From Psammoneis japonica (lineage: Eukaryota): a stretch of DNA of 64,000 bases. Position numbers and translations under genes: made by a program. Shown in pieces: positions 32,330 through 63,100 of this stretch (position 1 is its first letter; each line of letters starts with the position of its first letter). The stretch is from contig QPGO01000201.1 of NCBI GenBank assembly GCA_008632985.1, forward strand, positions 62,001 through 126,000, read 5' to 3'. Under the pieces are notes generated by a model that saw only the letters and a program-made list of their open reading frames with translations, had not been told where the DNA came from and searched no databases.

Positions 32330-32489
32330 ATGTTGACAAAGACAGAGTGGCCATTTTTGATTGAAAAATGTCAACGGCCCGTGCCACCCTCCCTGTCAGT
32401 CGTCGTTTCTCCAGATGCATCTGTTTCCAGCTAAATGCTGCTCCTGCAGCAAAGGAAAGCCACCTGACATGCAGCGTTGCAGAACAGAA

Positions 32490-38879: not shown

Positions 38880-41800
38880 CGGGCGACACAAAATTGCAAA
38901 AACCCCTGGAGCCGACGATGACATTGACACGGCAGGTGAGGTGTCAAAACATTCGTCGTTTCTTGCACTGTTGCAAGGGTGGCTCTGTTAGATCCTCACA
39001 GACATTGGGTTGTGATCGTCCATTCGGAGACACACACTTGGGCGAGAAAAAATTGAGACATGCATGCCACACGCCTCTCGCGCTTCTTCCTCGACTCGTC
39101 TCGAGCAATGTTCCCTGCCAATTTCTACCTCCACCAACCATGCTCTGGACTTTTGGCACCCATTGACAGTGGGAACAAAAAGATCAGAACATGCAAGTGA
39201 AAAATGGTGTTGGCACTCAAGCAAAAGACTGAGACATGCCACCGGCACTCTGGCCCATCCATTGCAAGCAAGCAGCATTTTCAATTTTGTTAAAAAAAAC
39301 TCATGAGTCTTCAGGAAAGTGGCAGCCATGGCCCCACCTCCCACCCAGACATGTTTTCAATTTGGGGAGGGGACCTGTGCTCTGTGGAGGGGACAAGCAA
39401 AGCAAAGTTTGATGAGAGTTTTTTGGCAAGGGTGCCCCCGCCCTCTGGCGAAAAAATGATTTGTCTTTGGGGTCATTGCAGCTTGCCACCATGGACAAAA
39501 GCAAGCTGCACTTTGACGTCAATGATGGACAATGATGCAAGGCATTTTGTCTTGGAGCTCATTTTGCAGAATGAGGGGCTGCCCATCAGCATGGCTGGCA
39601 TGTGGAAGAGGGGCATCGCCGCAACCCAAAGCTCCACAATGCCTTTCCATGAAACACAGAATGTGTCATTGCACAGACACAGAAGAGCTCAGCAGTCATC
39701 TGTCATCTTGCAAATCTCAATGCGTGTGCCTTTGAGATTGCTCAGAGACAGCAAGTTTGCAGGTGCTTCAGCCAGCAATGGGCTGGGAGCGCACCTTGCC
39801 AAACCTGCTGTCTTCACCCAGCAATGCAGCATTCCCATGCAAGAAAGCAGAGGAACAGTCTTCCAGTTCATCTGCTGCTGAGTTCATTGTGACGTCAGAC
39901 AAGGCTTCAAATGAGTTTGCTTCAGACTGGTTCTCAGAAGACAAGTCTTCACATGACATGGGCAGGTGCTCTCCTCTCTTTCACAAAGAGAAGCCAGGGG
40001 AGACTTGTCATCATCAAACAGGAAGGGTGCATTCCAAATGTGTTCTTTGGAAGCTGAGGAGACAAGTTGGAGGCTTGCAACTGCCGTGATTGTCTCAATC
40101 AGGGATGAGATGAATTGTTGGAAGAGGGGGGGCGATCCTGGGGTTTAAACTCACTGTGCCGTGTGCAGCGTGCATCAGCTCTTCTTGTTGAGGAAATTTG
40201 ACCCACCACAATTGAACCATCATGCAGCAAAGATGGCACAACCAGCTCTCAATGTGGGTTGACATGAAAGCAACATGGAATGTGCAAAAGAAAGCTCATT
40301 TGTGCAATGTGGGCAGGCGGCGTTCCTTTGGCGAGCCAGTGGATTGACCATGTTGCTGTCAGAGAAGGTTGAGTGGGAAACAAATTGTGGCAATGACAAT
40401 GACATGGTCATGGTTTGGTTTGGTTTGGTTGTTCAAAGTCAGTGAAAACAGAGCAGAACATGGGACACATGACACAAAAAGGGCTCAAAACCTTTTTGTG
40501 CATTGTTTTCATTGCACGATTTGGCGTTTGAGTGCAACATTGAAAATTTGTTCATCTGCAAAAAGAGAAATGTGAGTTTGAAAGCCATCCATGCCAACTT
40601 GGGAAAACAAGACTGCACGCCATCCTCGTGAGAATGAGAAATGAGCCAACAAGGAAGGGCACACGTGGCTCTGTGACAACACACAAAAATTTGCCAAGAG
40701 CACTGCAGTGTGGAAAAGAATGACAGAGTCAGGAAAGAGCAAGGACACAAAGCTGACTGTGGCGCCAAGCAACAAAGCTCTGCTGCTGGGGCTTTTGACA
40801 TTGGGAAACTGCTGGAAAATTTGGGAGTGCAAGGCAAATTGTGGGAAAAGATGACTTGACAGGGAAAAACCACCAATGCTTGAGTGTGCCAACCCCAACA
40901 AACAGCATGACTCATGGGGAGATGAAGCAGGAGTGCAGCAACTCAACAAGCTGCATGAAGAGGTTGAAAAAGACAGAGCAAGAAACCAAGGTGTGCTGAT
41001 TGACACAGGCTGCATCAACAACCAAAAGGAGAAAAACAACAAGAGAAGGGCAAAAGTGCAACAACCAAGAAAAAGCTGGTGCAGAAAAAGGCAGCAAGAA
41101 TGCAGAAGAGGACAAAGGAGAAGACAATGAGGAACAAAAAAATGTTTCCATCAAAGAGGAGCTGGCAGCACAAAACAGCACGGGAGTCCAGCAAGGAGGC
41201 TGCATCCGGTTGCAACAATCCCATCAAGTTGACAGCAAAGCAAACAGCAAATTGGCAACCATTGAAAAAAAATGTTGACAACTCACAGCATTGTTGAATT
41301 TGGGTGGCAAAATCAGAACAAAATGTCAAAAAAAACAAATGACTGCAATTTGCAGGTTTTGCAGGGATTGGGAGCAGGTGGTCTCGTGGCAAAAGGGGTG
41401 GCTTTTCACAGTTGCTTGTTGTTCTCATGGGAAGGGGGTGGTCTTCACAGCAAAAAACATTTGACCGTCATTGGCAACAATTTGTTGCCATGAGCAACAT
41501 CCAGTGTCCTGTCACAGCACAAAAAATTCACTGTGTGAGAAAGGCGCCCTCGATCGCTGAAGTGCACACTCCAATGAGAGCATCATCCACAACAGCTGAA
41601 AGTGCATGTGATGCATCCACATGAAAATCACACAAGCACGCCACAAAGATGTGCATTGTTGCTTGCATCTGGCGCCAAGTTGATGGAGCCATGTGTTAAA
41701 AAAACCCCTGTTCACCATCTGAGGAAGAGAAAAAAAGAGGCACAAAAAATGCAATGAGTCAAAAGGCTGTCCCCACAAGATGACACATCATCAAACAGAA

Positions 41801-44800
41801 AGCATCAAAATTTCAACCACATCATCACATGAAGCACAGTCTCTTTTTCACAGAGCGCAGTGTGCATGACAGGCCCATGGAGAGAAAGAATCGCGAGGTC
41901 CACAAAGTTTGCTTGTGGGCCACCAGGCAGGTGATGCGCGGTCCTCTTTAGTTGAAGAAAAATCTGGTCAAATTGCCATCAAATTCTGGTCGATTCTGCT
42001 CATTTTGTTTCTTTGGTTGTTCTGGTGAAACCAGAGGTGGTTGGCAACGCACAGCAGAAACTCTGCAGCAACACAAACTCTGCGTGCCAGCAATGCCCCG
42101 CAACTTCTTCCAGCAGCAGATTTGTGCTCTCTTCTTTTGCATGCTAAAACAATCGAACTCCAGAGTTCTTGTGCAGTGTCTTCGCGATGCGAGTGCAGCG
42201 CAAGTTGCCGCACAGAAACTCTGAAACAACTTTCAGCATGGCATCAACATGCACACCCCGTGTGCTGCCACTGTTGTTGATTGGCATGCATGAACAATGC
42301 TTGCACGACAGTGTCATGAGATGTCTTCCACCACTGCTCCTGCATCTGTTGACACTGACAATGATGCCACAAGAAAGTCACTTGCTCTTGATGCAAAGAG
42401 CAAGCTCGTTCTAAATGCACCGGAGGCAGCAAGCATGAATGGCAACTCTAAAGACGTGAAGCCATTCCGAGATGACAAATTCAAGCAGCCATGTGAGTGT
42501 TTTGAACATGGAAAGAAGAAGACTGGATGCAAGGATTGGAAGTGTCCCTCTGAGATGACAGATGAGGAGCACCTTTCCTGTCCACCAAGGAGGTGGAGTG
42601 CTGCTTCAAAAAACTCCAGGGAAGCCATCAACCGAGACACGGCTCGACCTGTGTTGTTCAAGCACGCAATCATCCATTGTGCCAATGAATTCAAGGTGTG
42701 TTCTTGTGGTGGCAAGGTCAATGAAAGTCACACAAATGTTGCCAGCTGCATGAACCAGATTTTGCAGAATCAGCATCATTTTGGCTGGTTTCCTGCTGGC
42801 GGTGGTGTCGCTTGCCAGGAATTGCGAGACGCTCATTGGTGCAAAAAATTGGTGGAAGAAACTGTCAACAGTGCCGCCAATGTTGAGGTGGAGAGTGATG
42901 GAGCACATGTGGGAGAGGGGCAGGTGGGTGTGAACACCCCAGTTGGTCATGTGGCATGCCTCCTGAAACACTTCAAGATGGGTTGGCGCTGACTGCTGAC
43001 AACCTGCACAAGCGGGATCTGCATGATCTCAAGGGGGCGCATGAGGCTGAGTTGTGGAAGGAGAAGTCATCCAGCCAAGCCAATGCCAACAAGGAGAAAG
43101 AAATGCTCAACAACACAAATGCTGTGATGGACTCAGTTGCCAGTGGCGATGCTGTTGACCGTGGGGTGGATTCTCCAGATGGTGTTGTGACCTGCAGTGC
43201 AGTGGCTTGTGAAGGATCAATGGTGCACGACATTGTTCTTCATCCTTCTGAAGGAACGCATGGCTGTGAGAAGTGTGGTGCAATGGTGCAAGACCTCACT
43301 GATTTCACAGATGAGCAGACAGCAGCGACGCACTCGGCAAAGACTGGCCCGAAGAGTGCAGCCAGCAAGGGCAGCAGGGGCAGATCACCCACAACCACAA
43401 TGGCTGATGCAGTTCTAAAGTCGCAAGAGCAAGGCATGTTGGCAGAAGAAAACAACAAAACAGCCCTTTTGAATGAGAAGACAAGGTTGGAGTTGGAGGC
43501 CAAGAAGGAGGAAGCGCAGCTCTTGAATGAGCAGAAAAGGCCAGAGTTGGATGAGAAGAGGGAGGAAGTGTGCAGGGCAGAAAGCAAGCAGATGGCAGAT
43601 GCTTTGGAAAAGGCAACCAAGAAGGACAGTGTGGATGAGCATGTGGAGAAGAAGCGCAAGATTGAGAGCCTGCACGATGTGCTGGGTGAGGAAATTACCC
43701 AAAAGAAGTTGAAGCAGCTGGATGAAGAATTTCTCAGCACTCCAGTGATGGACAGGGGTGGTGACTAAATGGCCAAGCAGTTGTGACAAAATGTTGACAA
43801 CTTGCATTGTCAGTTTCAATTTAGTTGCCTGCAAAAGCAGGGGATCGTGGACGTGTGAGAACACAGCACACAATTTGAATTGCAGCCAGAGCCGTGTTTT
43901 GACATTCTTTTGCGCATCTGGCTGGTGTGTGATGGGTGTTGTCTTGAGCCCATTCTACAGCATTGAGTCCAAGCTCGTGCCATTGAATGATTGGCCTCAA
44001 TTTTGTGTCGATGCAGGGACAGACCAGGGCCAAGTGATGGGTCATCACAGCCAGCTGACCCCACATCCATGATCGCATGTGCACTCTGTTCCTGCAAGCC
44101 TCTGGTTGAATGATCTCTGGGCCTCATTTTGCGAGACTGGCTGCCCCCCATCAGATCTTCATCAGACACGCTCATCTCCATTTGGCAAAAATCAATGCCC
44201 TGTCTGCTCTCCAACAGACACACTCGGCAAGGATGGCTGCCCTGTCTGCTCTTGAACATGCCCGACGTTCAGCAAGGTTGCCCTGTCTGCTCTTGAACAT
44301 GCCCGATGTTCAGCAAGGCTAAATCCTGTGAGCTGACAGAAATCATGAGTCGAGAACTCATTCACTGGATCGGTCACTGGCAGCATGGAGCATGACACAG
44401 AAGGTCTGCCAACCTTGTCATGTGACACGCAGTGGCAAAGTGTCAAATCAAACAAAACAGAACCCATTTTTTGATTGCTGGATTTTGACACATGCCCGAT
44501 GACATGGCACACCGCAGGAGTCGCCGGCAGTTGACTGCCTTGGCACCCTTTTGCTCCAACACCACCATCAGCAAATTGAAGAAAAATGTGTCACATCATG
44601 AGGAGGGATGCGCCCACGAGATGCAGCACTCTCATTCTCATTGACGGGCATGATGGTCGCTGTAGACAGCAGCAGCAACAACAAATGACACCAACACAAC
44701 AATGCTCTCATCGTCTCATCGACCTGTGCAGCTGAAGGCAAACAAGGCCACTGCAGAGTGAGTCACAGAATGCCAACAAAGCCACAATGCAATCATGCAT

Positions 44801-45200
44801 CACAAGCACAGTTGTCACCTTGTGCTTTGAATTGGCAGAATGGCAGCACTGTCTTGTGGAACGTAATGCGCTGCTGGTGTGTTGGTGTGTTTGTTTTCTG
44901 CAAGAAGAACCAAAGAGAAACACCCCGTTGGCAAGACACATGTGTCAATGTGCAGCAAAGACTTTGTCACTTTCAAATGCACCAAACAACAACACATCAT
45001 GCTCACCTTGGGTCATCCAGTCATTGCAAACAGCCGTCTTGTCCGTCCACCACAAAAGGCACAACAGCAACATCGTGTTTTTCTCTCTTTGCTTCTGAAC
45101 TTCTGGCGGCGGCCCTCCATCCATCAGCTTTTCTACGTGATTTTTTATGTTTGATCTGGTGCCAAAGATTTGTCTTTGGCAAGGAAAGTTGTGGCAGGAT
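38880..45200. mobile_element. Heavily degenerate repeat-like block(s) depleted in both TpA and CpG; family not identified
   Basis: Same TG/CA-rich signature as the neighbouring transposons. Protein-like remnant on + at ~42360-43768 (coiled-coil C terminus). No diagnostic catalytic motif recognised. Confidence 0.45.
44197..44320 (+). repeat. Three tandem ~41-42 bp units
   Basis: gccctgtctgctct... at 44197, 44239 and 44280. The last two units are nearly identical. Confidence 0.8.
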
Positions 45201-46445
45201 TTAACGTGAGCATCGCAAACCACCTCAGTGCGAAAGTCGTGGCAACTGTCCTTGAGCAATCCGGAAAGCAAGATTCCTCATTCCGTTGAAAGTTCCGGAA
45301 GAGGCTCAGGTTGCTGACTGCCCACCATCGGCAGTCATTCTCATTCTTTCAAGAACAACAACAGCAACAGTCGTCAGACAGTTTTTAATGCTGTCGTTTG
45401 ATGCAGGACACCTCTGCCGCTGTTGTCCTTCATCATTCATTCACAACAGCAACACTGGATCAGCCATGTTGAACCAGGAAGCACCGCCGGGACCGAACGC
45501 CGGTGGCGCACCTCAAAATGCTGCGTCACAACCACCGCCTGTACATCCGGCACCACCTCCTGTGCAGCCTCAACCACAGCCACCACCTCCACCCATTGGG
45601 CCCCCACAGGGGCAGCCGCTGGGAGAACCACCTCCTGCGGTTCCAGGGCAAGCAGGTGGCCCAGGCGGGGTGCCACAACAGCCGCCGCAACCTGCACCTG
45701 GTGCTAACATGCCTGATCAACCCAGGGCATTGACCACGCATGCTGACTTGTGCGCTGCTGCAAGCCTCGACCCGCATGGCGGAAATCACACAGAGGCCAT
45801 GTTAGACTTTGCAGCTGACGCGCAGGCACCGTCGCAGCACAACCCGCAAGTGCCATTCGGCAGACTTGCCGCCGCATCCGAACATGACGTGCCTGTGGCA
45901 ATCATTGTGCACTGCCACACACCGGGGCAGGGGAACCACCCCGGGTGCATCCAGGTTTCCCACCGCGTGTCAACTTGCCCCATGACGGCAGTTGGCACCG
46001 CACAACTGCGGGACGGGCGCACCTTTGGCATGGTTGGCGATTTGGTGCATGACCAGTGCCATTTAGCCAAGTTTCCCATGGCCATCACCAACTTGGCACC
46101 CCAAGGCACCCATGCATTGATGGATGCCCAGGCCCTGACTGCGATCGCAGCAGCGCCCGAAGGTCCATTGCCTCATGTGGGAGCCCAGGATGCCCACACA
46201 GTGGAGGTTAGAACCTGGGACATCATGCATGTCCCCTTTGGCTGTGTTGACCTCCTCCTGGTGATGCTGCTGACCCCCAAGCAGGCCTTCGTGTGCATTC
46301 ATGGTGCAGCCACTGCGGCTGATCAGGTCAATGCTTGCAGGCCATTGCTGGACTTTTTGAAGGTGGCGGCCACGGCAACTCAGCAAGATCCTGTGGCATC
46401 AGCCACAGTCTGAGATTGGCCGTCTGTGCCCCAGCCACCCAACGA

Positions 46446-46872
46446 TGTGCAGCATGCCTCGCTGCTGGACAACACGGCGAGACCGTGCACAAGCCTCTTG
46501 TGCGTGGCAACGCAGTGTTGTTGACACGCACCTGGGAAGCACGACCACAGGAGGGCATGGCTCCAGGTCTTGGGCAATTCCAGAAGGATGCTGAGAGAGC
46601 GTCCGTGTGAAGCACACTGGCCCGTCGTCTGGCCCACGATGGCAGCGTGATTCCACACGATGACATCACTCGTGCATGGCGCGTGATGGCTTGATTCGCA
46701 CGATCCACAATGCAAGCACACGATCGATTTGGTGTGATCCAAATGCAAACGAACAGGGATTTGGCAAGATTCCCCATTCGCACGATCCCATTTTCTCTGC
46801 TCTAAACTGGCTCACAATTTTCACAACGACGAAGTCGCAACACATCTTCTTTTTCAGCGCCTGGCACATGCA
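46446..46872 (+). repeat. Gypsy 5' LTR
   Basis: Direct repeat of 51259-51685; starts tgtg, ends tgca. Confidence 0.85.
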
Positions 46873-46940
46873 TGGGGCACAGCAATGTCACTCCCGCATG
46901 TTGTGCGAGGTGACGAAATCCACAGAAACGAAACTGCGAA

Positions 46941-47989
46941 ATGTTGGCAGGACCGACAAATCTTAAAACGACCATGAAGAAGCGGGTTGAGCCGCCGATT
47001 CCGTTCGCACGGCCGGAGAAGAAAGAGCTGCAGCAGGGCGAGTGCCAGACGTTCAAGCTGCGTGACAACCCCACTGATCCGGACAGTCCAATGCACAAGA
47101 TGGGCATTCCGCACCTTTCTGCGGCTACATGCGAGACACTCCCAATCTTTCTGCGCAACGTGGATCGCGTGCACGAAGGACAAAACATCACGACCGGGCC
47201 AGCGAAATTTGCCCTCATGCGTGACCTGCTGCAGGGCGATGCTCTGACGTCATTTGACAATGCCGCTGACAAGCAGGCATCCCAAACCAACGCTGCGTGC
47301 GCAGCATGCATCGCGAAGCTAAAGGAAAGCATCTTCCCACATGGGGCGGCACTGTTGCAGAAGCGTTGTCTGCGGCGCTTCACGCGCAAGCCCGCAGAGG
47401 TTTCTGCTCGTGACTGCGTCGCGAGGGCTGTTGAAATTAACGGCTGTGTCTCTCAGTTTACACCCGTGACGGAGGATGGAGAAACACCGGCACCATCACC
47501 TAATGACGAACTATGCGACATGTTCGAGTACGGTGTGCCGAACGCATGGCAGAAGTTCATGACGATACAGAATTTTGACCCGTTGGCGCATGCTGTCGGG
47601 AGCAGGTCGAGCTTACCGAAGGTAACCAGGACCAACATGCTAAGGTTCCACGTAAGCGGGGACGTAGAACGGACAATCCTGAGTCGTCGATCACGACCCA
47701 ACGGAACACCCAGAAGTCGTGCATGCTACACGGGACTAACTGTGGACATCATACGGAGGATTGCCGTCAGCTCAAACACCACGTGAAACGTGTCAAGACT
47801 GGACATTCCAATAACGGAGGCGGCAAGCCTAACACAAAACCTCGGAATGAGGAAGATATTAATACTCTCATCGGATCGAAGGTCGAGGAGTTCTTTGCCA
47901 ACGCTCAGAAAAAGCGCAAGGCCCGCGAGGAGGAGCTTAATCACTTCCGCGACCTCAACTTAAGTGATTCCGAAGATTCGGACGCCTGA
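46941..47989 (+). pseudogene. Gypsy gag, frameshifted
   Basis: QKRCLRRFTRKP, EYGVPNAWQ and the zinc-knuckle-like CMLHGTNCGHHTEDC in successive frames. Confidence 0.7.
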
Positions 47990-48121
47990 GAAGGGGGCCG
48001 ACACGATACAGGTAGTTTTAATACATTAGATGAATGTACAAATGAACAACTGAATTACCATCGTACACGTGTTGTAGGCCAATCCCGTAAACGAGTTAAA
48101 AAGACTCATCTTACTCCAATC

Positions 48122-51100
48122 TTGTTTATAGCTATGAATACTAAACATGGCAAGGGCAAGACTCAAACTATTAAGGCACTACTAGATAGTGGCGCCAGCA
48201 GTACTCTACTCGATAGTCGATACTGTAAACGTCTGCGAAGCCATTCAACGGCTGAGACAAACTGGACTACGGTAGCAGGCTCGTTTAGTACGTCTAACGA
48301 CTGTACCGTTAAATCTCGGTTACTAGAATTATGCGAAACTGCAGAACTTAAGCATACCGTCCACGTACACAACGGAAAGTTGGGCAAGTACGATATGATT
48401 ATTGGACGTGACATTCTGGAGACGCAAGGCATTGATATTGTCTTCTCTAAACAGATGATAGAGTGGCCAGTAGTCAATGGAGAAGTACCAATGAGGCACG
48501 TAGATGCTACGGTGGAAACCTCCTTCTATCTTCAAGATCCAGAACCCTTATCTTCGGAAACCGACCGGATTTCGCGTATTTTAGACGCTAAGTACGCGGC
48601 GGCCTGCCTCGAGGACATAACGCGAGAAGCAATAGGACTTTCTAAAGTTAAACAAAACGACCTTTTGGCACTATTGAAACGCCATGAGTCCTTATTTGAT
48701 GGGACATTAGGAGAATGGAAGGGAGAACCCTACCATATCCAACTCAAGGAGGGTGTAGAACCATACCACGCTCGTCCGTATAAAGTACCTCGTGCGTACG
48801 AAGCTACGCTACGTAAAGAAGTAGAACGCCTAGCACGTATCGGTGTTCTCAAACGCGTTAACCGATCCCAATGGGCAGCTCCATCATTTATCATACCGAA
48901 GAAAGATTTAACGGTGCGCTTTATTAATGATTTGAGAGAGCTGAATAAACGGATCAAGCGATTGCCTTATCCGATTCCTCATGTCCAAGACATGCCACTT
49001 GAGCTCGAAGGCTTTGTGTGGGCTGCATCGCTGGATTTAAACATGGGCTGTCATCATGTCCGATTGGACACTGATGGCAAGAAGCTCTGCACGCTCATCT
49101 TCCCGTGGGGCAAGCATGAGATGCAGGCATTGCCCATGGGATTGTGCAACTCGCCAGACATTTTCCAAGAGTGCATGTCAGGCTCATTTGAAGATCTGTC
49201 GTTCGTTCGAACGCACTCAGATGACCTTCTCGTCCTGACGAAGGCACCTGTGAAGATCACCTCAACAAACTTGAAGAAGTTTTGTTGAGGGTCCAGAAAG
49301 CAGGACTGAAAGTCAACGCAACCAAATCTCACTTCTGTCAAACCCAATCAGAGCACTTGGGTCATCTGGTCAACAGAGACGGAATGCGACCAATGCCCAA
49401 TGAAGTCGACGCCATTGAGCGAATCGCGACCCCAACCAATGAACGCGACCTGCGTTCATTTGTTGGCATGGTGAGCTGCTGCCGCGACACGTGGATTGGA
49501 CGTTCTGAAGTCTTGGCTCCGCTGACACGACTCGCAAGTGAGGCTGTTGAGTGGGAGTGGACGTCCGTTGAAGATGAGGCATTCGAAACCGTCAAACGGG
49601 CAATGTCGGATGATGTTTTGTTGTCACATCCTGATTTTAACAAACCCTTTGAGACACACACTGATGCCTCTAAACATCAATTGGGAGCAGCCACATCCCA
49701 AGACAATGAACCCATCGCCTTTTACAGCAGAAAGCTTGACAGTGCGCAATTAAATTGTGCAACAACGGAGAGAGAATTGCTCGCCATTGTGGAGACGTTG
49801 AAAGAATTTCGAACGATTCTCCTTGGTCATCGTACAATCACATGTGCTGATCACAAAAATCTTGCGCACAAAGCATTCAACACCGAGCGCGTTATGCGCT
49901 GGCGGTCAACATGCGAAGAATGTGGTCCCGAATTATGCTGTGTCAAGGGTGCCCACAACCTGGTCGCTGACGCTCTTGGTCACCTTCGACTGGCACCCAG
50001 CTTGACTTCCGAGGCTAATCCGGATGCAAAAGACACTCCATCGAGTCGTCCTTTGCATGAAGCCTTTAATGCAGACGCACAAGATGAGCCATCTCTGCCT
50101 GTTAGCTTCAAGCGCATTCAAAAAGCACAACAAAAGGACAAGCGCCTGCTCTCAAGAGCCAAGGACTCGTCCAACTGCTCCATTCACGACAGTTGGTCTG
50201 TCACAAGGACAAAATCGCAGCACCACAGTCATTGCAGGTTCCGCCAACTGAATGGCACCACGAGACACTGTGTCATCCAGGTGAGACACGCACGGAAATG
50301 TTCATTGCCCAGCACTTCTGTTGGCCCAGTGTGAGGTCTACGGTGCATTCTACGTGCGTTGAGTGCGATCGATGCCAGAAGACAAAACGCCGAATGCAGC
50401 ATCATGGGAAGCTGCCAGAAAAGGTCGCAGAGATAATTCCATGGGAGACTCCATGCATGGATGTGATGGGGCCACATGAAATTCAAAGACGCGGAAAGGA
50501 CACCTTGCAATCATGGGCAGTCACAATGATTGACCCAGCAACCGGGTGGTTCGAGATTAAAGAAGTGTCTACGAAACGTGCAGACGTCGTGGCAAACATC
50601 GTGGAACAAACGTGGCTGTGCAGACATCCGTGGCCAACCCAGGTGGTTCATGACCGTGGGACAGAATTCATGGCAGAATTTAGCCAGATGATTAAAAATG
50701 ACTGTGGGATTTTGAAGAAACCCATGAGTGAACGGAATCCACAGGCAAATGCCACAGTGGAACGTGTGCACCAGACACTTGGCAACATGGTGCGTTCCTT
50801 TTCAGCACAGGATGTGGAACTGGACGAAGATGACCCATGGAGTGGCATCCTCTCCGCAGCAGCCTTCGCTGTTAGAGCCACGGCACACATGACCACGCGT
50901 GCAAGTCCCGTGCAATTGGTCTTCGGACGTGATGCGGTTTTGTCTGTTGCCCATCGTGCCAAGTGGAAGCACATAGAAACCAGAAAGCAGAAGCTCACCC
51001 ACTTAAACAACAAGCATGAAAATCAGAAACGCAAGGAGTGTCAACACACCGCAGGGCAATTGGCACTTGTCAAACAGGAACAATCCTCTAAGTGCGGTTC

Positions 51101-51230
51101 TGACAGCCATGCAGGACCCGCCAGAGTTGTCCGTGCACATGACAACGGCACGTTGCGTGTCCAGAACGGAGCACTGACAGATGCGCACAATCTATGGCAG
51201 ATTTCACCCTGTCACCAGCAAGACATCCTG
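48122..51230 (+). pseudogene. Gypsy pol (PR-RT-RNase H-integrase), frameshifted and mutated
   Basis: ORFs 48122-49288, 49282-50334 and 50193-51305 carry the domains in Gypsy order. Confidence 0.92.
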
Positions 51231-51258
51231 TCACTTAACGGCCCTGATCATGGGGGAG

Positions 51259-51685
51259 TGTGCAGTGTGCCTCGCTGCTGGACAACACGGCGAGACCGTG
51301 CATGAGCCTCTTGTGCATGGCAACGCAGTGTTGTTGACACGTGCCTGGGAAGCACGACCACAGGAGGGCGTGGCTCCAGGTCTTGGGCAATTCCAGAAGG
51401 ATGCTAAGAGAGCGTCCGTGTGAAGCACACTGGCCCGTCATCTGGCCCACGATGGCAGCGTGATTCCACACGATGACATCACTCGTGCATGGCGCGTGAT
51501 GGCTTGATTCGCACGATCCACAATGCGAACGCACGATCGATTTAATGCGATCCAAATGCGAACGAATGGGGATTTGGCAAGATTCCCTGTTCACACGATC
51601 CCATTTTCTCTACTCTAAACTAGCTCATAATTTTCACAACGACGAAGTCGTAACACATCTTCTTTTTCAGCGCCCAGTGCATGCA
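51259..51685 (+). repeat. Gypsy 3' LTR
   Basis: Follows the polypurine tract; direct repeat of 46446-46872. Confidence 0.85.
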
Positions 51686-53099
51686 CAGGGCAGATGCCCT
51701 GATCCAACATTTTGAGAGAAAGGTGCAATGAGACTTGCCCAACCATGGAGGGCAGCCTGCACCCACTTTTGCACAGTTGCAGCCGTTGGTCCAGTTGGTG
51801 GATGATTTGACCACGGAACAGCACCAGACATGTCTGGACAGTGCCGCCCATCAGCAGGCGGCTGACAGAGGCAAGACACCACACCAGTTCTTTGGAGAGC
51901 ACGGCGTGCTCAAGCTTGCGCGCCTTTGCCAAGTGTGGCAAGCCAACCAACTGCCTCCTGTGTGGGAAGGTTTAGCCGCAGTGCCAAAAGCAGGATGCCT
52001 CGCGGCGATCCAGAACATGTTCGATGAGCAGCGGCAGGCACAAGGCATTTGTTTCCCACTTGCGGTGTCCCCAGCACTTGCCACCAAGTTTGTGCAGCTC
52101 ACCTTCTCCGGCAGCAACCGAGACGATGTCATCCAGGGCATTGGCCCTTTCTTGTTCGGCCCATCTGTGCCCCAACAGGAAGAGCAGATTGCCCACCGCG
52201 TTGCACTCTGCAGACAGATTTGCAGTGGAGAAGGGGTCCCATCATTGGCCGACACGCTGGTCCTTGAAGCACCCGACGATGCAAAAGTTGCCACCACGGT
52301 CCAGGTGACCCAGCAATCTTTCGATGGTTTGAGGGTGGTCTCATCTGCGGCATTGGGAGCCGCGCACCCTGTCGCACGGCACCTCATGGAGGCACGCAGG
52401 GCGACAGACATGTGCACCAGCGACTCAGCAGTCCAAGCCCACCGGCACCCCACACTGCCCGCAGACCTCCAGCGACACATTCAAGTGGAACTGCTACACT
52501 GGTTCTGGCACCAGGAGGGGTTTGATCAACCTGTCCCATTTGCGGCCCGTCAGGTTGTAGCGGAAGCCACCAAGGGGTCCATGGCCTGGTGTCACGATTT
52601 GCCAGTGACCATCACAACACAGCCGGCTTCTGCTGGCACTGCCGTTGGCGCAGCACGCCCACTGACTACACCGGCACCAGCACCAGCATCCGCCATGCCG
52701 CTGGGGGACAACACGTCAGTGCGCAACGAGCACTGCGACAGCCGTTTCAATGAGATGCACACGTGTCCCAACATTCAATCCCATGATGTTAAGCAGCAAT
52801 GTGCGCGAGCTAATGTAGACCTCCCAACGGACTCCCGGGGAAACCCGCACTGCCTCCCCTTTCACATCAAAGGACAATGCAACACCAACTGTGGTTCCCG
52901 CTCAGATCACCGCGGGGGGCACACCCAGGAGGAGCAGGATGCACTGTGTGCCTGGGCGGACATGCATTAGAAGACTGAACAGGTCTTCGGCAATGGTCTG
53001 AGCACAGGGACTCCAGACTGACGGCCTCCTTGCGCCACTTGCAAGTGGCCACTTCGTGGACAGGCGATTGCCGCATCAGCTGCAGCTGACAATCAGGCA

Positions 53100-55080
53100 A
53101 GCTCATCGCACGTGACACCAAATTGCTTCGTCACAGAGGACTCAGCCAATTGTTGCGTCTTTGACACGGTCGAGGTGACCTGGGGCCCATGTGCATGCTC
53201 CACGGCCATCCCGCATGACGGATGCTCCAGGGATGCAAACGCCGCGGGGTGCCCATCACTGCAGCCGACGCTCCTTGGAGCACCGACAAGTTCCAGTGTC
53301 GAGAGGGGCCCACACAAGTCCGCTCACGAGCATTTCGAGTTCCTGCGCGAGGACATGGCTGATTGTGTGGAGCAAGGTCACTGGGTGGTCGCACCACACG
53401 ACGAGGTGAAAGATTTGCTGGGCTTGCGCATCAGTCCCATCGGTGTGTCCCACAACATGGGCGTCGCCCCCGACCCATTGTCAACTGCACCTTTTTTGGC
53501 ACAAACAATGCCACGCAACCCAACGCGCCCATCGAAGCAATGCAGTTCGGAAGAGCCTTTGACCGACTCTTGAGACGCATCTTGCTTGCCAATCCATGAC
53601 AAGGCCGGGTCCATCTGATGAAGATTGACCTGTCTGATGGCTTCTGCCACGTGACACTTGCACCAGAGCGCGCTCACGTCCCAGCCATGTCATTCCCCAG
53701 TTTGCCCGAGGAACCACCATTGGCAGCCATTCCCGCCAAGCTCCCTGTGGGGTGGAAAAATTCACCACCTGCCTTCTGTGCCGCTGCGGAAATGGGTGCT
53801 GACCTTGCCAACACTCTGCTCCTACAAAATTTTCAGGCTGTGCCACACTGCCTGGAGCACTTGGCGTGCAGCCGCCGTCCACCGCTGCGCCCGGCACCAC
53901 CGGCCACACCACCCCACATTGCGGTCCCAACACCAACCAACCCAGATCCGCACACACAACATCAGCGTCGCCGTCGCTTGCGCTGCGTGGAGATCTATGT
54001 CGATGACTGCATTGGAGCAGCTCAAGGCAACAAAGCCTGCCTCGCAACATTCATCACATGATCATGACCGCCATCGATGACGTCTTCCGCCCACTGGCCA
54101 AGGATGACCCACACCATCGCACCGAACCCATCTCCACAAAAAAGTTGAGAAAGGGCAATGCAGCATGGTCAACCCAAAAGGAAGTCTTGGGTTGGCTCAT
54201 CGATGCCCAGGCTGTGACCCTCCAACTCATGTGCCATCGACACACACACCTGCAACAGACTCTGCACCAGGACTTTCCCCGCCACAGAAAACGAGCCACC
54301 ACCACCGACCACCACAAGCTCCTTGGAGAACTCCGGTCCCTTTCCTTGGCCTTGACCGGCTCCCGTGGACTGTTCTCGGAACTCCAAGAAGCACTCTGCC
54401 ACACAACCCCAGATTCCCGGGTGCGCTTGACGGCCAACATCCATGCCATCCTGGATGATTTTGGGGACCTGCATTCCGACTTAGAGCTTTGCCCAGCTCG
54501 CATGCAGGAACTTGTCCCACTCCAGCCCACAGTGCACGGCTGTCATGATGCCGCGGACATGGTGCAGGTGGTGTTGTGCTGCCCACGCCAGCCACTGCAC
54601 CACACACCCAACGTCTGCGCTTCAGCCCACATGCCTTTCCCTTCCGATGTCACAGTGGATTTAGCCACCTGCGAGAACCCGCATGGCACCATCACCAACA
54701 CCGATCTGGAGCCAGCAGGGAGTTTTGTGCAAACTTGTGCCACCACGGAGTGTTTCGATGTCGTGAACACACACACCTCCAGCACACCGACAGTCTCGGC
54801 ACCATGTGCTGGCAATGCAAAGGCCCTTCCACGACCGTCAAGCCATGCTCCAAACTCCTCCGCGGCCAAGCATGCCACCAGCGTTTCCATCGTCACATTG
54901 CCTGCACGACCACCTGCCTGGCGACCTGAACGGCCCTGCTGATGACACGTCTTGTCTTCAATCATTGTCCAACATTGCCTTTTTGCACCATTTTAGCACC
55001 TGTTGTCCGCAGACCAAACCTTGGCGCTTGTGGACCCCGCCACGCGCACTGCATTCCTACGTGACCTCAGTGCTGCGCAG
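53100..55080 (+). pseudogene. Ngaro/DIRS reverse transcriptase-RNase H remnant
   Basis: RISPIG, MQFGRAF, MKIDLSDGFCHV, LPVGWKNSPPAFC, EIYVDDCIG, VLGWLID, GCHDAA, ITNTDLE across frameshifts. Confidence 0.8.
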
Positions 55081-56100
55081 CATGCCGTGTCCCACACCGT
55101 TGCCTCTTCAAGAGCCATGGCCGCCGACACCCACTGGAATCTGTGGGCTGCCTTTTGTCGAGAGTTGGCCCTCAACCCACTGCTCCAAAGCATCCCAGAC
55201 CCCGCACTCTACCTCCAAGTTTTCCTCCACCGTTTCCAGGTTGGCCGCATTGCACCCAGGGGAAATCCCGTCCATGGCCACACCGCTGAGGATGCCCTGC
55301 GGTCGGTTGGACAAAGGTTCACTGCAATGGGGGCCTTGGATCCATGGCTCACCCCACAAGGCGGCTTGAATTTCTGCCTTGCCCGCCAAATCCGATGTCA
55401 CAAGAAGGAGGATCCGCCCCCGGACCGCGTAAAAACCCACACCCGTCACAGTCCTCCTGTGGATTTTATCCGCTGCTGCGCCAGCCAGCACCCGGGCACT
55501 GGAGCCATTGCTGACATGACAGCTTTAGTTTGTTTCTTCCTCATGCACCCCGGTGAATGCACCACCCCTTTCCGACTCGCAGATTTGCATCTGTCGGCTG
55601 GTGGGGTGCACTTGGACCTTTTCAATTCACCCCTGGCCCAACTCACTGCTTCCACTTTTGCAACACTCACGTTCACCACCCAGAAAAATGGAGTTCATGG
55701 GGAAGTCATTGGATTGGGCCTTTCCGGCCATCCACAGCTTTGCCCAGTCAAAGCTGCCATCTGCCGGGTGACGCACCTGCGCGCCTCTGGTGCACACCCC
55801 AACACTCCCCTGTCGGTTTGCTCTTTAAATGGGCAGTGGTGTCGGGTTGCCCCCACCAACATCATGTCCATCCTCTGAGTTGCTGTCATGTCAATCGGCC
55901 ATCAATGCCTTGGCTTCACCCCCGATGATGTCTCCGCCCAATGCTTGCGTGCTGCCGGAGCCATGGGGCTGTTGTGTGCCCGAGTTGACACTGACATATG
56001 CGGCTCTTGGGCCGCTGGCACTCCGACGAAATGCTCCGATACCTCCACCTTCAAGTGGAGCCTGTCATGCAAGATTTCACCCGCCGCATGTTGGCCAGGG
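55003..56100 (+). pseudogene. Tyrosine recombinase remnant of the Ngaro/DIRS element
   Basis: FFLMHPGEC (from FF.LR.GEY), FTTQKN, LCPVKA, SAQCLRAAGA, LGRWHSDEMLRYLH. Confidence 0.82.
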
Positions 56101-57376
56101 GTGACTTCGCCCTCCATCCAAATGCTGAAGCACCTTTGGCTCCCGACCAACCTGTGTGAGCGCCACCAGCCCTCCAGCCAGACCCACCCACCCTCCCAAG
56201 TCCATGCCACCTCCGCTGCACTCTGCGCAGCTCCCTCTGGCATTGCGGTGCTGGAGGCCCTTGCCAACGCATTCCAGCCCTAGGTGGGAGCTCGCAGCAC
56301 TGACGTGTGACAACAACAATTTTTGTCATCCGTCGCATGTTTCGTGCACAGATTTCTGCGTGTGACATTTAAAAAACATTGTCCAGACTCGCTGTTTTGC
56401 AAAGCCCCAGACGTTTTATGTGACAAATTTATAGAAACAACAATGCGCCAGTTACATTCTTCAATGTCTGAAGAATGTAACTGGCCAAGTAAAAAATGAT
56501 GTGCTTCAATCATGTGCGAGTTTGTGCGTTCGCAAAATTGCCTCATTTTCTGTTGGCGATCATTGACATTTTAATTGCCGTGCAATTTCACTGTGGAGCT
56601 CGCACGTAGAAGTCCACGGGCCCAATGTCACACGGATTCCCACCCAAGTCTGGAACGCATCTGCCGTCCAGCTTTGGGTTTGGGAGATGCCTTTCCCAGG
56701 GCCAGCAAAGCCGTCTCCACTCCTGCTTCCATTCGTGGTCCTGCATTTGCAAGTTTGCCAGTTTGCTGTTTTTCTAAAATCTCGATGCATCGGACAAACG
56801 AGAAAAGCGGCGACAGCAGCTGTCCTCGAGCAATCCGGAAAGCGAGATTCCTCATTCCGTTGAAAGTTCTGGAAGAGGCTCGGGTTGCTGACTGCCCGCC
56901 ATCGGCAGTCATTCTCATTCTTTCAAGAACGACAACAGCAACAGTCGTTGGATGGTTTTTAACGCTCCCACCTCTCCCACCCTCTGGAGGCCCTTGCCGT
57001 CCAGCTTTGGGTTTGGGAGACGCCTTTCCCAGGGCCAGTAAAGCCATCTCCACTCCTGCTTCCATTCGTGGTCCTACATTTGCAAGTTTGCTAGTTTACT
57101 GTTTCTAAAATCTCGATGCATCGGATAAACCAAAACGAGAAAAGCGGCGTAACGCGCGCCGGCCGGCTGCAGAAAAACTTGTCCGAAGAAATTGCTGCAG
57201 GTTTGCTAACCACCTCTACTGTTGGGGGAAATGATGATGCTCACATCTCACATCTCACATCATATTAATATATACCGGTACAATAAAACCACACATCCCA
57301 TCGAAACCACAGAGCATTCAGTGGAAGTGCTGATGCCAGTGGTAGTGCTGATAGGCTTGTCTTTCTGTGTAATGTC

Positions 57377-58399
57377 ATGACAGACTTGCGGTGTCTTTCC
57401 AAGAAGTGTCTCGGTTGGAGAAGGAGGATTCTTCTTGCTTTCATCAGCCTTGTTGTGAGTTCCGCCTTTGAACGAAGACTTGCATTGCGGCCCATGAAAC
57501 CCATTCTTCATAACAAGAATATCAACAACAAAAAGCACTGCCAAGAAATCATGGCAGTGTGTACCGATGATCCACGAGCAGTCGAACGATGGCTGAATCG
57601 AAATCTCCGGGAAAATTATGTTGGATTTGATCTCGAGGTGAGTCCAGTTAGTCTTTTTAATAGCTTGTTTACAGAAAATCTAAAGTATGCATGCATTGTC
57701 TACTAGTCCGTCCCCGATCTCCCTTGGAAGTCATACAAGTACACTGGTCCCGCAACGATGCAGCTTGCTACGGTAGATTCTGCCATTGTCATTGTGATTG
57801 CCGATTCCTTCACTGGTCCGAATCGCAAGGTCTTGCCACTCTTGGGAGACTTGCTAGCGGATGAATCACTCTTGAAAACAGGTGTCGGAATTCATGGAGA
57901 CATGGTGGAACTCCATCAATGGCAGCCAGCCTATTTTGACTCGATTCATGGCAGATTTGATATGGGTGGTATCGGAGGTATCAATCCAGGACATCAACAA
58001 TCTTTGAAACGGCTTAGTGAAGATGTTTTGCATGTGGAATTGTTCAAATCCAGAAAGATTGCCCTAAGCAATTGGGCACGGAGTCGCTTGACGGATCAGC
58101 AATTGAATTATGCGGCGCGAGATGCCTGGGCAGCGGCGGCCATTGTTCATGAAATATTATCCAAGGGAATACGCTCCAGTGACGAAATAGCAGATTGGAT
58201 CCAAGAACATGAGATCCCCATTGATGAATTTATGAGAAGATCCATGGAACGCAAGGAATGCCGACTCCGTTACAAGCAAATCAAGCGTTTGGAAGAGTTT
58301 CAGCAAGAGGCTGAGGAATTGTTCCAAAAAATGAGTCAGCTTGCTCCACCACGGCCAATGGTGATTGAATATAAGAAAGACAAAGACGACAAGCAGTGA
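57377..58399 (+). CDS. WRN/EXD2-like DEDDy 3'-5' exonuclease; intron 57638-57706
   Basis: YVGFDLE|SVPD..PATMQLAT, LKTGVGIHGD, SLKRL, LSNW, QLNYAARDAW. gtgagt...ctag intron keeps the frame. Confidence 0.88.
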
Positions 58400-59062: not shown

Positions 59063-59869
59063 CTAGTACTGCCCGGTCGGTTTCCTCATGGCCAATCTTC
59101 TCAATTCATCCACGCTGGGTATATTTCCGTCATCATCGGTTAGTCTTCCCGTCTGACGATAATCCGTGACGGCAATACCCATTTCCGAAACAGCCAGCAT
59201 GGCCCGGTCTCTATCTTGCCGCTCAATGGCTTTTCCAAAGACACCGCATTGTGTTTCATAAGCTTTGCAGTCGGCCATCATTTGCTTGGCGTACGAATTG
59301 CTCATGCCAAGGCCTTGTCCGTCCAAACTCGATACGTATAGTTTCATTGGCAAAATGGCATTGTCTGCCGTCTTGTAAAATTCCGATACCCCTTCCCAAT
59401 TGCCATCGTCAATCATGGGTGGAACAACTGTGATGGTGTTGCTCACTTTTTGAATCCGAGGGAGATAACGCTTTTTGGCTGTGGGATAGTAATACGCTGT
59501 TGATTGATTGGAAAAAAGATGGATACGGCATGAGTGACTCGAAACAAATCAAGACCTTTAGATTTTTTGAATGAGAAAAGAAATGGAAAACGTACATGCT
59601 CGCAGAGTCGGGTCGATTCCTTTATCTCCTTTTTGTCCCTTGGCAATCACAACGGTGGAGGACTGGTCCTTTTGTACAATTTTGTTGGGATCCGCACCAA
59701 ATTCATCCAACAAACCCGCCTGTGCTGCACTCGGAGCCGCCGCAGTAGCTGCCGCAGCAGTCGCCACGGATTGAAGGAGGCTTCGTCGGTCCATGGAGCC
59801 TGGGACCAACGCCACAGACGAGGCCACAAACATGGATGCCACAATCGTAGAAGTCAAAACAAGTTTCAT
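59063..59869 (-). CDS. Probable plastid thylakoid-lumen protein of unknown function; intron 59497-59595
   Basis: Signal peptide MKLVLTSTIVASMFVASSVA, twin-Arg DRRSLL, Ala-rich segment ending AQA. gtacgt...acag intron joins to SYYYPTAKKRYLPRIQK in frame with ORF 59063-59446. Confidence 0.75.
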
Positions 59870-60199
59870 GGCTTTGCGCTCTTCTTCTTTTAAGTTGAAA
59901 TGGAGATGAACAAAAGGATTTGTGACATCCAATGCTCGCAGATGTTCTGTCGACAACGCACCACGTCGATTGCATTGGCCGCTTGCGTTTTCTTCTGCTG
60001 TTATTGTTTTGTGAGAAAGGTGAGGGGTGACGTGGCTCCATCCGACCGCGCGAGATCGCGCATGCCACAGACGACGGCTCTGAATGGAGGAGTGGATGCA
60101 TGGACAGACCGTGTTGGAGGGAGTTTCTGAATTTTCGAAAATTGTTCGGAAGCCACCAGCCACTCAACATGACGTTGAAGGCTCACAAATAATATAATG

Positions 60200-63100
60200 G
60201 CTGACATGGATACAGTCACGACTCAACGTCATTCTGGTCGCATCTCACGACTGCAACCCAGACTCAGATTTTCTCTTCGAAACAATTGGCTCATCACAAA
60301 ATCGATTCAAACAGAAGCAACGACATTCGTCATAATTTCTAGACAACGACTTTCAACAAGCGTCTGTTTACCTCTGTCGCTGTTCACATTGCTGCCAACC
60401 TCCGAGGTCTTGCCCATCCCACTCAGCTGCAGGGCTGCATCTCGACTGGTTGCAGAGCCCAATTTGTGCGTTGACGAGAGCTCCTGACCGAGTCATCGTC
60501 ACGGACGCTTTCGGTTTTTGATTTTGAAGCAAACCCGGGAAATAGCTGAGTCTCTCTCGCTTCTCTCGTCTTCACTCTAACAAGAACCTCCCATGCTGCA
60601 CTCTCTGTCATGGCTGCCATCGATCCAGATGTTCTGGCGAAGGCGTTTGCCGATGCAATGGCCGCCAACGCCGCGGCGACCGCTCCTCCGGCTCCAACCA
60701 AGCCGTTACGTGGTGGAATTCACCCAACCCACGGGGTTTACATTGGTGGTTCCAAACTCAACAACAACTGCGAACAATCCAATGATAGAACCTGCCGGCT
60801 CGCCTCTCAGCGCCGTCATCCCAAGGCTCTCGACTCGATAGAACGATCTCTCCGCGATCAACAAGCTTCCGCAATGACTTCCAAGTTCAACGGTCGACTT
60901 GAGATTTCAGATGGTCCCATCAACGAGCTTGACAAGGACCATTTCGTCAAGACTGTTCGAGATCTGGTGGAAGCCCACGGTCAGCAGACGTTCTGCCATG
61001 TCAAGGACAGCGACGACAAGGTTCAATGTGTCTTCGACCATCTTCACGAGTTTACTGTGACCGATCTCGTGAACGAGTGCACGGTTGGGAAAGCAGCTGC
61101 CGATGATGCCAAGTACGACGAGATCAAGCTCGACGACATCGGGCTCTCTCAACTTCTCGTTCACTCAAGAATCACCAATGCCTTTCGCGAGAAAATCGAG
61201 ACCAAGTTCAACCATCTTTCGGACTGCCAAGACTGCCCTGGATCTGTTCCATTCATGATGGCTCTCGATGCTTGCAATGCTGGTGCTCTGACGGATGTTG
61301 AGACGGCTGAGAAGCAGCTAGAAGACCTCAGTTTGGTTGACTGTCCCAGCGAGGATTGCACGGACTTTGCTGCCGAAGCTCTTCGCATCGTGAAAATCAT
61401 GCAGACCGACTGCGCGCTTCCGGCGAACACAAGCTCCAAGCTGCTCCACAAGATCTCCTCTGCGTCCTCTGAGTGCTTCAATCGCCGAGTCTACAACAAG
61501 CTCAACGACGTCAAGGCCATGGAACGCAAGCACCGCCTCAAGAATCCTGCTGACATCGTGTCCGACAGCGATCACAGAACGCTCGGACCGGTCGGCATCA
61601 TTGCGTGGATTCAAGAGCAACACAACGAACTCGTGAAGGACAGGGAATGGCCTGCATTGGCAGCCAAGCTACCCGAGAGTAATCTTTCGACTACGGATGA
61701 CCCTGTGAAGACGAAGCACTGTCATGGTTGCGGTCTCGAGGGGCACACCAAGAAGACGTGTCCGAAGTGCAACGCCAAACCGCCGCGCGACGATCCTCCT
61801 CCCAATCCGCCGCCTGCAGACGACCCTTCCAGGAAGAAGAGGCGACCCATCGCTGCCTGGCGCACTAAATTTGACGGAGAAACGAAGAAGGATAAGAATG
61901 GCAAGGAATGGAAGTGGTGTGCCACGTGCAAGGCGAAGGGTGCCGACAAACCTGGAATCTGCCAGAAGCACTCTACCGCGGAACATGCCGACGACCGCAG
62001 GCAACCTCCCAAGGAGACCCCAGCAGGGAATTTGTCTTCCGTTGCTGATCCGGACAGTGGCGTGCCCATGGGTCCGCCCGCTCAGACTACCAAGGAACCA
62101 GAGGGAGACGAATCCGACCCCAACGAGTTGGTTTTCACGGGAATGTGGTGCGCGGCTACGGATCCCGTTGCCGACCCGGATTTCTGTTCCGCCCCTGTCA
62201 CTGCTGCAATTATTGTCACTCCGGCTTCCGAGAGGGAGAGCGACACAGTCGTTAGCACTGAGGTGGTTTGCATCGAAACGAGCCCACCTGTGCTCACCTC
62301 AGTCGTGGATCCAGTCGTGTCTCCCATCGTGGTTGAGACTGTCACTCCCGAAGACGCCGATGACTTCTGCGAATGCTCCGACGCTTTCTCTACCTTTGAA
62401 AACGAACCACCGGCTATTGAGTTGTTTCCGGCCTCGAAGCTGTGCTCTGTCGAGCATCCGGATGAGTTCTTTGACGCTCCCGCACATTTGACGGATGTGC
62501 TGTCAGACGACACCAAGTTAGATCTCATCCTTGAACACGACGTACACTTTGAAGACGCATGCTACGACTTGCCTCCGTGTGTTACGTATCGTGGCTTCGA
62601 TTTCTACGATCCAGAGGTCCTGGATGCGGATGATTGTCACGAGGACGTCGAAGACGAGCCCACTTCGCGTCGCTCACTCTTGGGTCGAGTCAAGCCATTC
62701 ATACTCTGGCTCGCCGCCATGTTTTGGGAAACGGCACTGCATCTTTGCTTTGCTCCGATCCCATGTATCCCTCGAGCTCTACGCCGCCAGCGCAAACTCC
62801 CAACTTTGCACGGGTTTCCAGCCTCCTGGATGGTCCTGTCCGTTGCAGTGATGGCATGGTCAGCAGTTTACGCCGGTCAACAGCCCGAGTGTCCATTCTC
62901 GAACGTGCCAAGTCGTTTTTCGACCGCCAGCTCTCAAGTCTACCACATTGTGGAAGAGCTAGATGACCGGATAGTGTCAGATACGGGGTCACTGTTCGAA
63001 TGTCACAGGATCAAAGGCACGCAAGTGCTCACCGAGTTTGTCGCGCGCCATCCGTCACACGCACTGAGCACTCGTCTCAAGGCCTGCTGGGAGAGCCAGA

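Follow-up and report, generated by a model that had tools for sequence, protein, structure and literature searches.

The 64,000-nt stretch of DNA analyzed here (the window; Psammoneis japonica contig QPGO01000201.1, positions 62,001 to 126,000 of the forward strand, assembly GCA_008632985.1) carries a Ty3/Gypsy long terminal repeat (LTR) retrotransposon at positions 46448-51692. This element was rich in the dinucleotide TA when it integrated; hypermutation changing TpA into CpA or TpG subsequently struck both DNA strands of the integrated copy. One interior block, 47499-48981, shows no detectable TA loss. We tentatively propose that this block was never targeted in place by the hypermutation, a reading that we hold to be plausible without being probable.

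A block that retains TA inside a hypermutated Gypsy element

In 500-bp windows, the observed/expected (obs/exp) ratio of TA is 0.99-1.17 and that of CG 1.12-1.33 within 47751-49000, whereas TA obs/exp is 0.0-0.19 in the left flank (46251-47500) and 0.03-0.10 in the right flank (49001-49750). Retained TAs are dense from 47501 to 48968; beyond, the next ones are found just at 49038 and 49638. A two-change-point likelihood scan of the element places the island at 47501-48968, with a log-likelihood gain of 84.7, TA representing 104 of the 267 TA, CA, and TG sites inside and 37 of 763 elsewhere in the element. Unsupervised segmentation of the window, run blind on all its 12,620 TA, CA, and TG sites, isolated 47438-48968 as a segment of its own at two penalties, with a TA fraction of these sites of 0.38. 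The TA-rich island that the original prediction had placed at 47440..48975, from the letters alone, is therefore borne out by composition, change-point scans, and segmentation.

The limits of the island could be refined. According to a context-aware model, based on context-specific TA retention, the left edge lies between 47497 and 47501 (two-log-likelihood-unit, 2-lnL, support 47415-47512) and the right edge between 48968 and 48980 (2-lnL support 48968-48993). Comparison with homologues sets the outermost limits: on the left, the last mutated site is 47497 (TTA>TCA, Leu>Ser) and the first kept TA 47501; on the right, the last kept TA is 48968 and the first mutated site 48983 (ATC>GTC after a T, Ile>Val). 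The exempt block is 1469-1483 bp long, within 47499-48981. Likelihood models and homologue inference both place the switch within ≤15 bp on either side, and the edges are as sharp as had been predicted. The highly susceptible contexts ATAC, ATAT, ATAG, and GTAC make up 39 of the 104 island TAs, compared with 10 of 171 in the saturated tracts described below. The mutation dose within the island is about zero, even at the most susceptible contexts.

The features of the element and of its host element, all on the + strand, are the following:

46444..46447: left copy of the target-site duplication GATG, directly 5' of the 5' LTR
46448..46879: 5' LTR, 432 bp, TG...CA, one TA left
46974..47989: gag, N-terminal part hypermutated (homologue search, 1094 relatives)
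47499-48981: unmutated island (late gag, protease, first ~27 residues of the reverse transcriptase domain)
~47720-47764: Cys/His knuckle of gag
48143..48433: aspartyl protease domain, inside the island (RVP / gag-asp_proteas, residues 52-148 of open reading frame [ORF] 47990-49288)
48893..49252: reverse transcriptase (RT) domain, crossing the right edge in frame (RVT_1, residues 302-421)
49558..49911: RNase H domain, hypermutated (RT_RNaseH_2 / RT_RNaseH in ORF 49225-50334)
50247..50714: integrase zinc-binding and core domains, hypermutated (Integrase_H2C2 and rve in ORF 50106-51305)
51252..51258: purine run GGGGGAG, polypurine-tract-like, just 5' of the 3' LTR
51261..51692: 3' LTR, seven TAs left
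51693..51696: right copy of the target-site duplication GATG, directly 3' of the 3' LTR
45242..57149: older TA-depleted element hosting the Gypsy insertion, with terminal direct repeats and a weak RT match

The two LTRs, in direct orientation, are 92.6% identical over 432 bp, start with TGCAG, and end with GGGCA; the TA fraction in the 5' LTR is 0.011. Pfam domains follow the order gag, protease, RT, RNase H, integrase, as in Ty3/Gypsy elements. By its LTRs, its 4-bp GATG duplication, and this domain order, the element is a Ty3/Gypsy LTR retrotransposon. Its pol has 923 longer relatives at E ≤ 1e-20; among the matches listed, these combine RT, RNase H, and mostly integrase. No relative in the protein collections exceeds 58% identity, the best being at 56-58%, and the 64-kb window holds no second copy of the family. 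No primer-binding site was identified, the window containing no tRNA gene for comparison.

As anticipated, the island extends from late gag through the protease into the early part of RT, whose domain, starting at 48893, crosses the right edge. The peptides by which it had been recognized (GKYD, AKYA, PYHARPYKVPRAYE, and LPYP) are all found in translation, as are QDMPLELEG, MGCHH, and GKHEMQ beyond the right edge. gag ends at an in-frame TGA (47987-47989) directly 5' of pol. Inside the island, a deletion of ~28 nt at ~47598 shifts its frame: up to 47597, the best gag relative aligns by its residues 13-228, and from 47600 onward, in a different frame, by its residues 239-371. In a three-frame view, two frameshifts are visible in pol, at ~49240, at a short G run, and at ~50190, upstream of the integrase domains. 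Judged from this gag deletion and these frameshifts, the element is dead. In addition, the consensus Tyr-Ile-Asp-Asp box of RT reads His-Ser-Asp-Asp at 49214-49225.

A nested insertion as the origin of the island was rejected, the RT alignment running in frame over the right edge and the gag homology over the left edge. An intron-like GT...AG reading was also dismissed: candidate sites are present, by eye, in the support intervals of the edges, as chance predicts.

The host element is bounded by terminal repeats at 45242-45392 and 56816-56966 (92%), and a further pair is found at 56638-56812 and 56975-57149. Its weak RT match (53600-54061, RVT_1, E = 1.9e-4) is below the Pfam cut-off.

Hypermutation after integration and its uneven dose

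To orient the change, we compared pol with a consensus of 113 relatives of 1000-1200 aa, out of 120 listed, and gag with a consensus of 100 relatives of 330-450 aa, out of 150 listed, with the gag counts tallied by hand from the rows listed. For pol and gag together, TA>CA/TG accounts for the residue at 65 of 563 conserved positions in the flanks versus 3 of 207 in the island. In pol, 129 of the 161 conserved island positions match the consensus, one mismatch is explained by TA>CA/TG, and 31 are not; in the right flank, 341 of 475 match, and the mismatches comprise 57 explained by TA>CA/TG and 77 unexplained. Island and right flank differ in explained mismatches (Fisher p = 7e-7) and not in unexplained ones (31/161 versus 77/475, Fisher p = 0.40). 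With the 120 near-length pol relatives listed, the island gives 121 matches, 1 explained, and 26 unexplained mismatches over 148 positions, and the right flank 173, 39, and 34, respectively, over 246. The retention of tyrosines in the island, also part of the original prediction, is confirmed by the same 120 relatives: the consensus Tyr is kept at four of five positions in the island and at one of 15 in the right flank, where the others have become His (seven), Cys (five), Trp (one), and Met (one). In gag, explained mismatches are found at 8 of 88 conserved positions in the left flank and at 2 of 46 in the island part. When every TA of the island was mutated in silico to CA or TG at random, new mismatches appeared at 12.1 ± 1.6% of conserved positions; this saturation reproduces the rate observed in the right flank (12.0%, 57/475). 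As read from the homologues, the flanks are the derived, mutated state and the island has the ancestral composition. That polarity had been proposed from composition, and homologue consensus, in silico mutation, and LTR pair agree on it.

The LTR pair dates the mutations relative to integration. It shows 24 difference events: 8 CA-versus-TG, 6 TA-versus-CA/TG, 8 CG-versus-CA/TG, and 2 others. Each CA-versus-TG doublet implies one ancestral TA, mutated on one strand in one LTR and on the other strand in the other. All six one-sided sites have their TA in the 3' LTR; the 5' LTR has no such site. The LTRs share one TA, and ~20 TAs per LTR are implied at integration, so the element arrived unmutated. 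Since doublets and one-sided sites require independent changes in the two LTRs, mutation acted on DNA after integration. Both strands were hit, in an interleaved pattern. These data show that the Gypsy element integrated TA-rich and was then hit in place on both strands by TpA>CpA/TpG hypermutation. For the flanks, the independent changes in the two LTRs and the hits on both strands rule out editing of the cDNA before integration. The eight CG-versus-CA/TG differences, which run in both directions, could be due to CpG transitions or to double hits at one TA. A search for kb-scale, strand-coordinated runs of TG versus CA detected weak asymmetries only (|z| up to ~3.3), likewise present in unmutated DNA, and was uninformative.

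The reverse polarity, in which the flanks would be original and the island TA-rich through a C>T process (CpA>TpA) like that of fungal repeat-induced point mutation (RIP), or through selection on a domesticated protease, has a negligible probability. The TA obs/exp of the island (~1.0-1.17) does exceed that of host genes (0.5-0.9). Nevertheless, the island fits the family consensus at those 129 of 161 pol positions and keeps four of five tyrosines, the flanks hold the 65 TA>CA/TG-explained changes, including the lost Tyr of the RT catalytic box, and the LTR doublets require an ancestral TA. A RIP-like gain of TA is ruled out by the homologue consensus together with these doublets; as for selection on the protease, silent TAs are kept too and gag is broken.

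The signature is not confined to the Gypsy element. Over the whole window, obs/exp is 0.30 for TA, 1.39 for CA, and 1.45 for TG. The blind segmentation delimited four saturated tracts, with TA fractions of 0.016-0.039:

6573-23842: saturated tract
30558-34031: saturated tract
38887-47432: saturated tract
48980-57036: saturated tract

Host-like segments between these tracts have TA fractions of 0.21-0.24. In the saturated tracts, CA+TG obs/exp reaches ~1.5-1.9. The sum of TA, CA, and TG is 164-221 per kb throughout the tabulated regions, with 177-221 in the saturated tracts and flank blocks and 181 in the island. The depleted tracts contain the Gypsy element and the RT-bearing element that hosts it, together with a transposon with terminal inverted repeats (TIRs) and ORFs without Pfam match; the non-depleted segments contain the host genes (including proteasome, CoA transferase, Got1, Patched/SSD, fasciclin, and PLD/hydrolase). 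The TpA>CpA/TpG signature fills ~36 kb of transposon DNA, and the process is thus shown to strip TA from all transposon DNA of the window and not from host genes.

The dose received is uneven. The 5' part of the Gypsy element has lost ~95-99% of its TAs, the 3' part ~65-85%. Relative to the context-adjusted tract average, 48980-49637 kept one TA versus 3.4 expected, 49638-51260 kept 23 versus 7.3 (P = 2.6e-6), and the 3' LTR kept 7 versus 1.5. The 3' 2 kb of the element (49638-51692), with 30 TAs versus 8.8 expected, is less saturated than the 5' part. More generally, 1-kb bins of all tracts are over-dispersed (chi-square 95.2, 36 bins, p = 2e-7). A further step at 49638 was considered and set aside; it is significant by the context-adjusted count, yet the blind segmentation did not call it.

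Other tract edges are also well delimited. In the context-aware model, the 2-lnL support spans 67-134 bp at four of the six; it is wider at the edge near 30552 (30541-30844), and for the edge near 6570 it falls at 6405-6472, ~150 bp off the segmentation edge. The tract 30558-34031 stops ~20-55 bp inside the TIRs of a DNA transposon. This transposon (30501-34076, TIR arms 30501-30539 and 34034-34076) keeps TAs in its terminal ~20-55 bp, and its ORFs contain no Pfam domain.

Explanations for the unmutated block

If the block was never targeted, hypermutation would be directed to particular positions, as blocks whose limits are fixed and very sharp. The segment 47499-48981 would lie outside these limits, perhaps in a gap of the guidance of the mutator, for example by matching small RNAs or homologous partner copies. 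It would have the same age as its flanks and would simply have escaped any dose. The mutator is probably a DNA adenine deaminase (A>G at 5'-TA-3'), as proposed in a preprint on Bigelowiella natans (Mettrop et al., bioRxiv 10.64898/2026.01.13.699255). Counting for the never-targeted reading, the dose depends on position even for identical sequence, as seen in the LTR asymmetry and the uneven TA retention, and hypermutation itself makes sharp limits, as at the other tract edges. Furthermore, the island looks as old as the flanks from its own gag deletion and its equal rate of non-TA mismatches; frame-breaking lesions number one in the 1.48-kb island versus two in ~2.9 kb of internal flank.

Several points weigh on the other side. 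The island contains the protease and RT, the most conserved part of the element and the least likely to lack homologous partners or guides. The unequal doses on identical LTRs argue against a purely sequence-defined guidance. The step from 0% to ~98% within 15 bp on both sides fits a replaced patch or a chimeric assembly equally well, and the island is the sole interior exception in ~36 kb of saturated transposon DNA. Near the left edge, within the island, comparison with the gag consensus points weakly to two TA hits, at 47520 (Met versus Ile) and 47592 (Ala versus Thr), which may be a weak tail of mutation or plain family variation. Finally, scans of the edges found no RNA family, tRNA, or flanking repeat marking them.

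A more specific version of the never-targeted reading, in which a sequence-matching guide (small RNA or homologous DNA pairing) would act with a resolution of ~15 bp or better and the island would be a guide-free segment, appears doubtful to us. Were it true, it would mean that a eukaryote defends itself naturally by programmable, guide-directed adenine editing of DNA, and such islands would map the contents and the gaps of the guide pool.

Alternatively, ~1.48 kb might have been copied in from an unmutated copy of the family after saturation, by ectopic gene conversion or by recombination with retrotransposon cDNA, hypermutation at the locus having by then stopped. We consider this replacement possible, if rather unlikely. 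It would account for edges that both step within ≤15 bp, for the RT frame running on through the right edge, and for the presence of a single such patch in ~36 kb, and it would remove the oddity of the most conserved part of the element being unguided. An unmutated source existed at least once, because the present copy was TA-rich at integration. A length of ~1.5 kb is typical of gene-conversion tracts, and in yeast Ty1 the cDNA is known to recombine with resident copies. That hypermutation had ceased is conceivable: only two regions were actively hypermutating in the lines described in the main text of the B. natans preprint (bioRxiv 10.64898/2026.01.13.699255), so a dead copy may no longer be targeted.

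However, the patch contains the ~28-nt gag-breaking deletion, and its rate of non-TA mismatches is not below that of the flanks; either the donor would have been defective or the patch would be old. Moreover, ~7% of positions would differ between donor and recipient, a divergence that disfavours homologous exchange. A rough conversion of figures in the preprint's main text gives ~1e-5 mutations per TA per generation. If the organism is the same and the locus still active, the first of the 104 TAs should be hit within ~1e3 generations; at most 3 of the 207 conserved island positions show a hit.

An assembly or polishing mosaic, in which the consensus would switch from a mutated to an unmutated family copy and back, no real molecule carrying both, is unlikely. 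Clean block borders in a repeated element are a classic form of chimeric consensus, and the frameshift at ~49240 lies at a short G run, where an error of length is conceivable. Against this, differences between the two versions would recur roughly every 15 bp on each side of the joins, leaving no long identical overlap for a false join, and the switch is complete on both sides without flip-flop between alleles. The island has its own ~28-nt deletion, unlike an intact master copy. The window is also free of N, and its host genes have long intact ORFs.

Lastly, the element could have arrived already patchy if reverse transcriptase had switched between co-packaged mutated and intact RNAs. Template switching does give sharp, in-frame junctions. 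Nevertheless, the LTRs held ~20 TAs each at integration and lost them independently later, as the eight CA/TG doublets show. Because this heavy hypermutation after integration would have exposed the island too, a mosaic formed before integration would still need an exemption in place, and we regard it as very improbable.

The very sharp edges of the island are a handle on how TA-to-CA/TG mutation is aimed, and the locus constrains the choice of targets, a question that the main text of the preprint leaves open (bioRxiv 10.64898/2026.01.13.699255). If the island is real on single molecules, its two edges allow a direct comparison of targeting marks inside and outside. Under the never-targeted reading, a 1.5-kb block of a target may stay untouched while identical LTRs 4.8 kb apart receive unequal doses.

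Comparison with known systems and other features of the window

A full-text literature search retrieved one matching description of the TpA>CpA/TpG signature, the B. natans preprint (bioRxiv 10.64898/2026.01.13.699255). According to its main text, integrated giant-virus and virophage regions mutate ~1000-fold faster than the rest of the genome in mutation-accumulation lines, almost exclusively by TpA>CpA/TpG changes. The authors report 124 genome-wide clusters of TpA-depleted windows, enrichment of RT and DDE domains among TpA-depleted coding sequences, and a single-copy target, and propose an ADAT2-like adenosine deaminase as the mutator (bioRxiv 10.64898/2026.01.13.699255). As far as described there, the process resembles that of our window in the change itself (A>G or T>C only at TpA), in the TpA depletion with CpA+TpG enrichment in clusters of windows, in its aim at foreign or mobile DNA, and in an activity uneven between regions and lines, the dose here being likewise uneven. 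It differs in that mutation is ongoing and the inserts are far from saturated (TpA Rho 0.45 for a giant-virus insert), whereas the tracts here are saturated (TA fraction 0.016-0.039). A term search of the preprint's main text found no LTR retrotransposons, bp-sharp limits, exempt interior block, LTR-pair evidence, or wider sequence context. On the strength of that text, the signature of the window matches B. natans-type hypermutation, a process already described.

In the literature searched, TA-to-CA/TG hypermutation has so far been reported solely in an alga. In the window, it acts on LTR retrotransposons and a DNA transposon after integration, with near saturation and limits sharp at 15 bp to ~130 bp.

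Other systems share single features with this one. In fungal RIP, the mutated stretch has the limits of the segment that is targeted, and unique inserts within repeats largely escape. Like RIP, the present process leaves permanent, dense, dinucleotide-specific transitions in genomic transposon DNA. Conversely, RIP changes CpA to TpA, raises TA and AT, and makes stop codons; here TA is lost, GC goes up, and no stops can be created. The TpA excess that RIP produces in repeats is absent, TA being lost in repeats of the window. APOBEC3, acting on cDNA, and ADAR, acting on double-stranded RNA, similarly hypermutate retroelements by transitions and prefer certain 5' neighbours; for ADAR, the preferred neighbour is a U preceding the edited A (bioRxiv 10.64898/2026.01.13.699255, Discussion). 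Unlike the process seen here, both act before integration, APOBEC3 on one strand; here mutation occurred after integration and on both strands, and DNA transposons are hit too. Gene conversion or cDNA recombination of the Ty1 type would give a kb-scale, in-frame, sharp-edged patch. It differs from the present case in that the patch is itself defective and no donor copy is seen in the window.

With only T>C and A>G changes, no stop codon is created, and TAA and TAG are removed. TA-free DNA therefore has TGA stops only, and long spurious ORFs arise in all six frames. The 13 kb from 44500 to 57500 contain 77 ORFs of at least 80 aa. TA-free tracts are consequently a trap for gene prediction, with many false long ORFs, and mutated elements are killed by missense (Tyr>His/Cys and others), not by stop codons.

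We also looked at the context of the 171 residual TAs of the saturated tracts (6573-23842, 30558-34031, 38887-47497, and 48980-57036). Compared with host DNA, TTAA is 6-fold and CTAA/TTAG 4-fold enriched. ATAC, ATAT, and ATAG are nearly gone from these tracts and have normal shares in the island. This suggests that the mutator has a wider context preference, a T before TA, or an A after it, being protective.

Tract 39000-45240 is also poor in CpG (obs/exp 0.1-0.5, 19.9 CpG per kb, versus obs/exp of 0.6-0.9 in the other tracts). Its low CpG is a second signature, possibly methyl-CpG decay, that concerns one element only or reflects a greater age.

The 17-kb TA-free tract 6573-23842 is without internal repeats of at least 30 nt. 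It includes a GIY-YIG nuclease-like ORF (14875-16038) and a 959-aa ORF without Pfam match (10741-13617), and may be a large transposon or an integrated virus. Adjoining its start, in non-depleted DNA, is an inverted repeat (4717-6334) with arms of ~500 bp (5067-5551 versus 6171-5686, 76% identical) and a further pair at 4717-4836 versus 6334-6215 (85%). At the other end of the window, 59634-63999 is partly TA-depleted (TA fraction 0.08) and contains an 851-aa ORF without Pfam match (60550-63102); it could be an element in which the same TA loss is less advanced.

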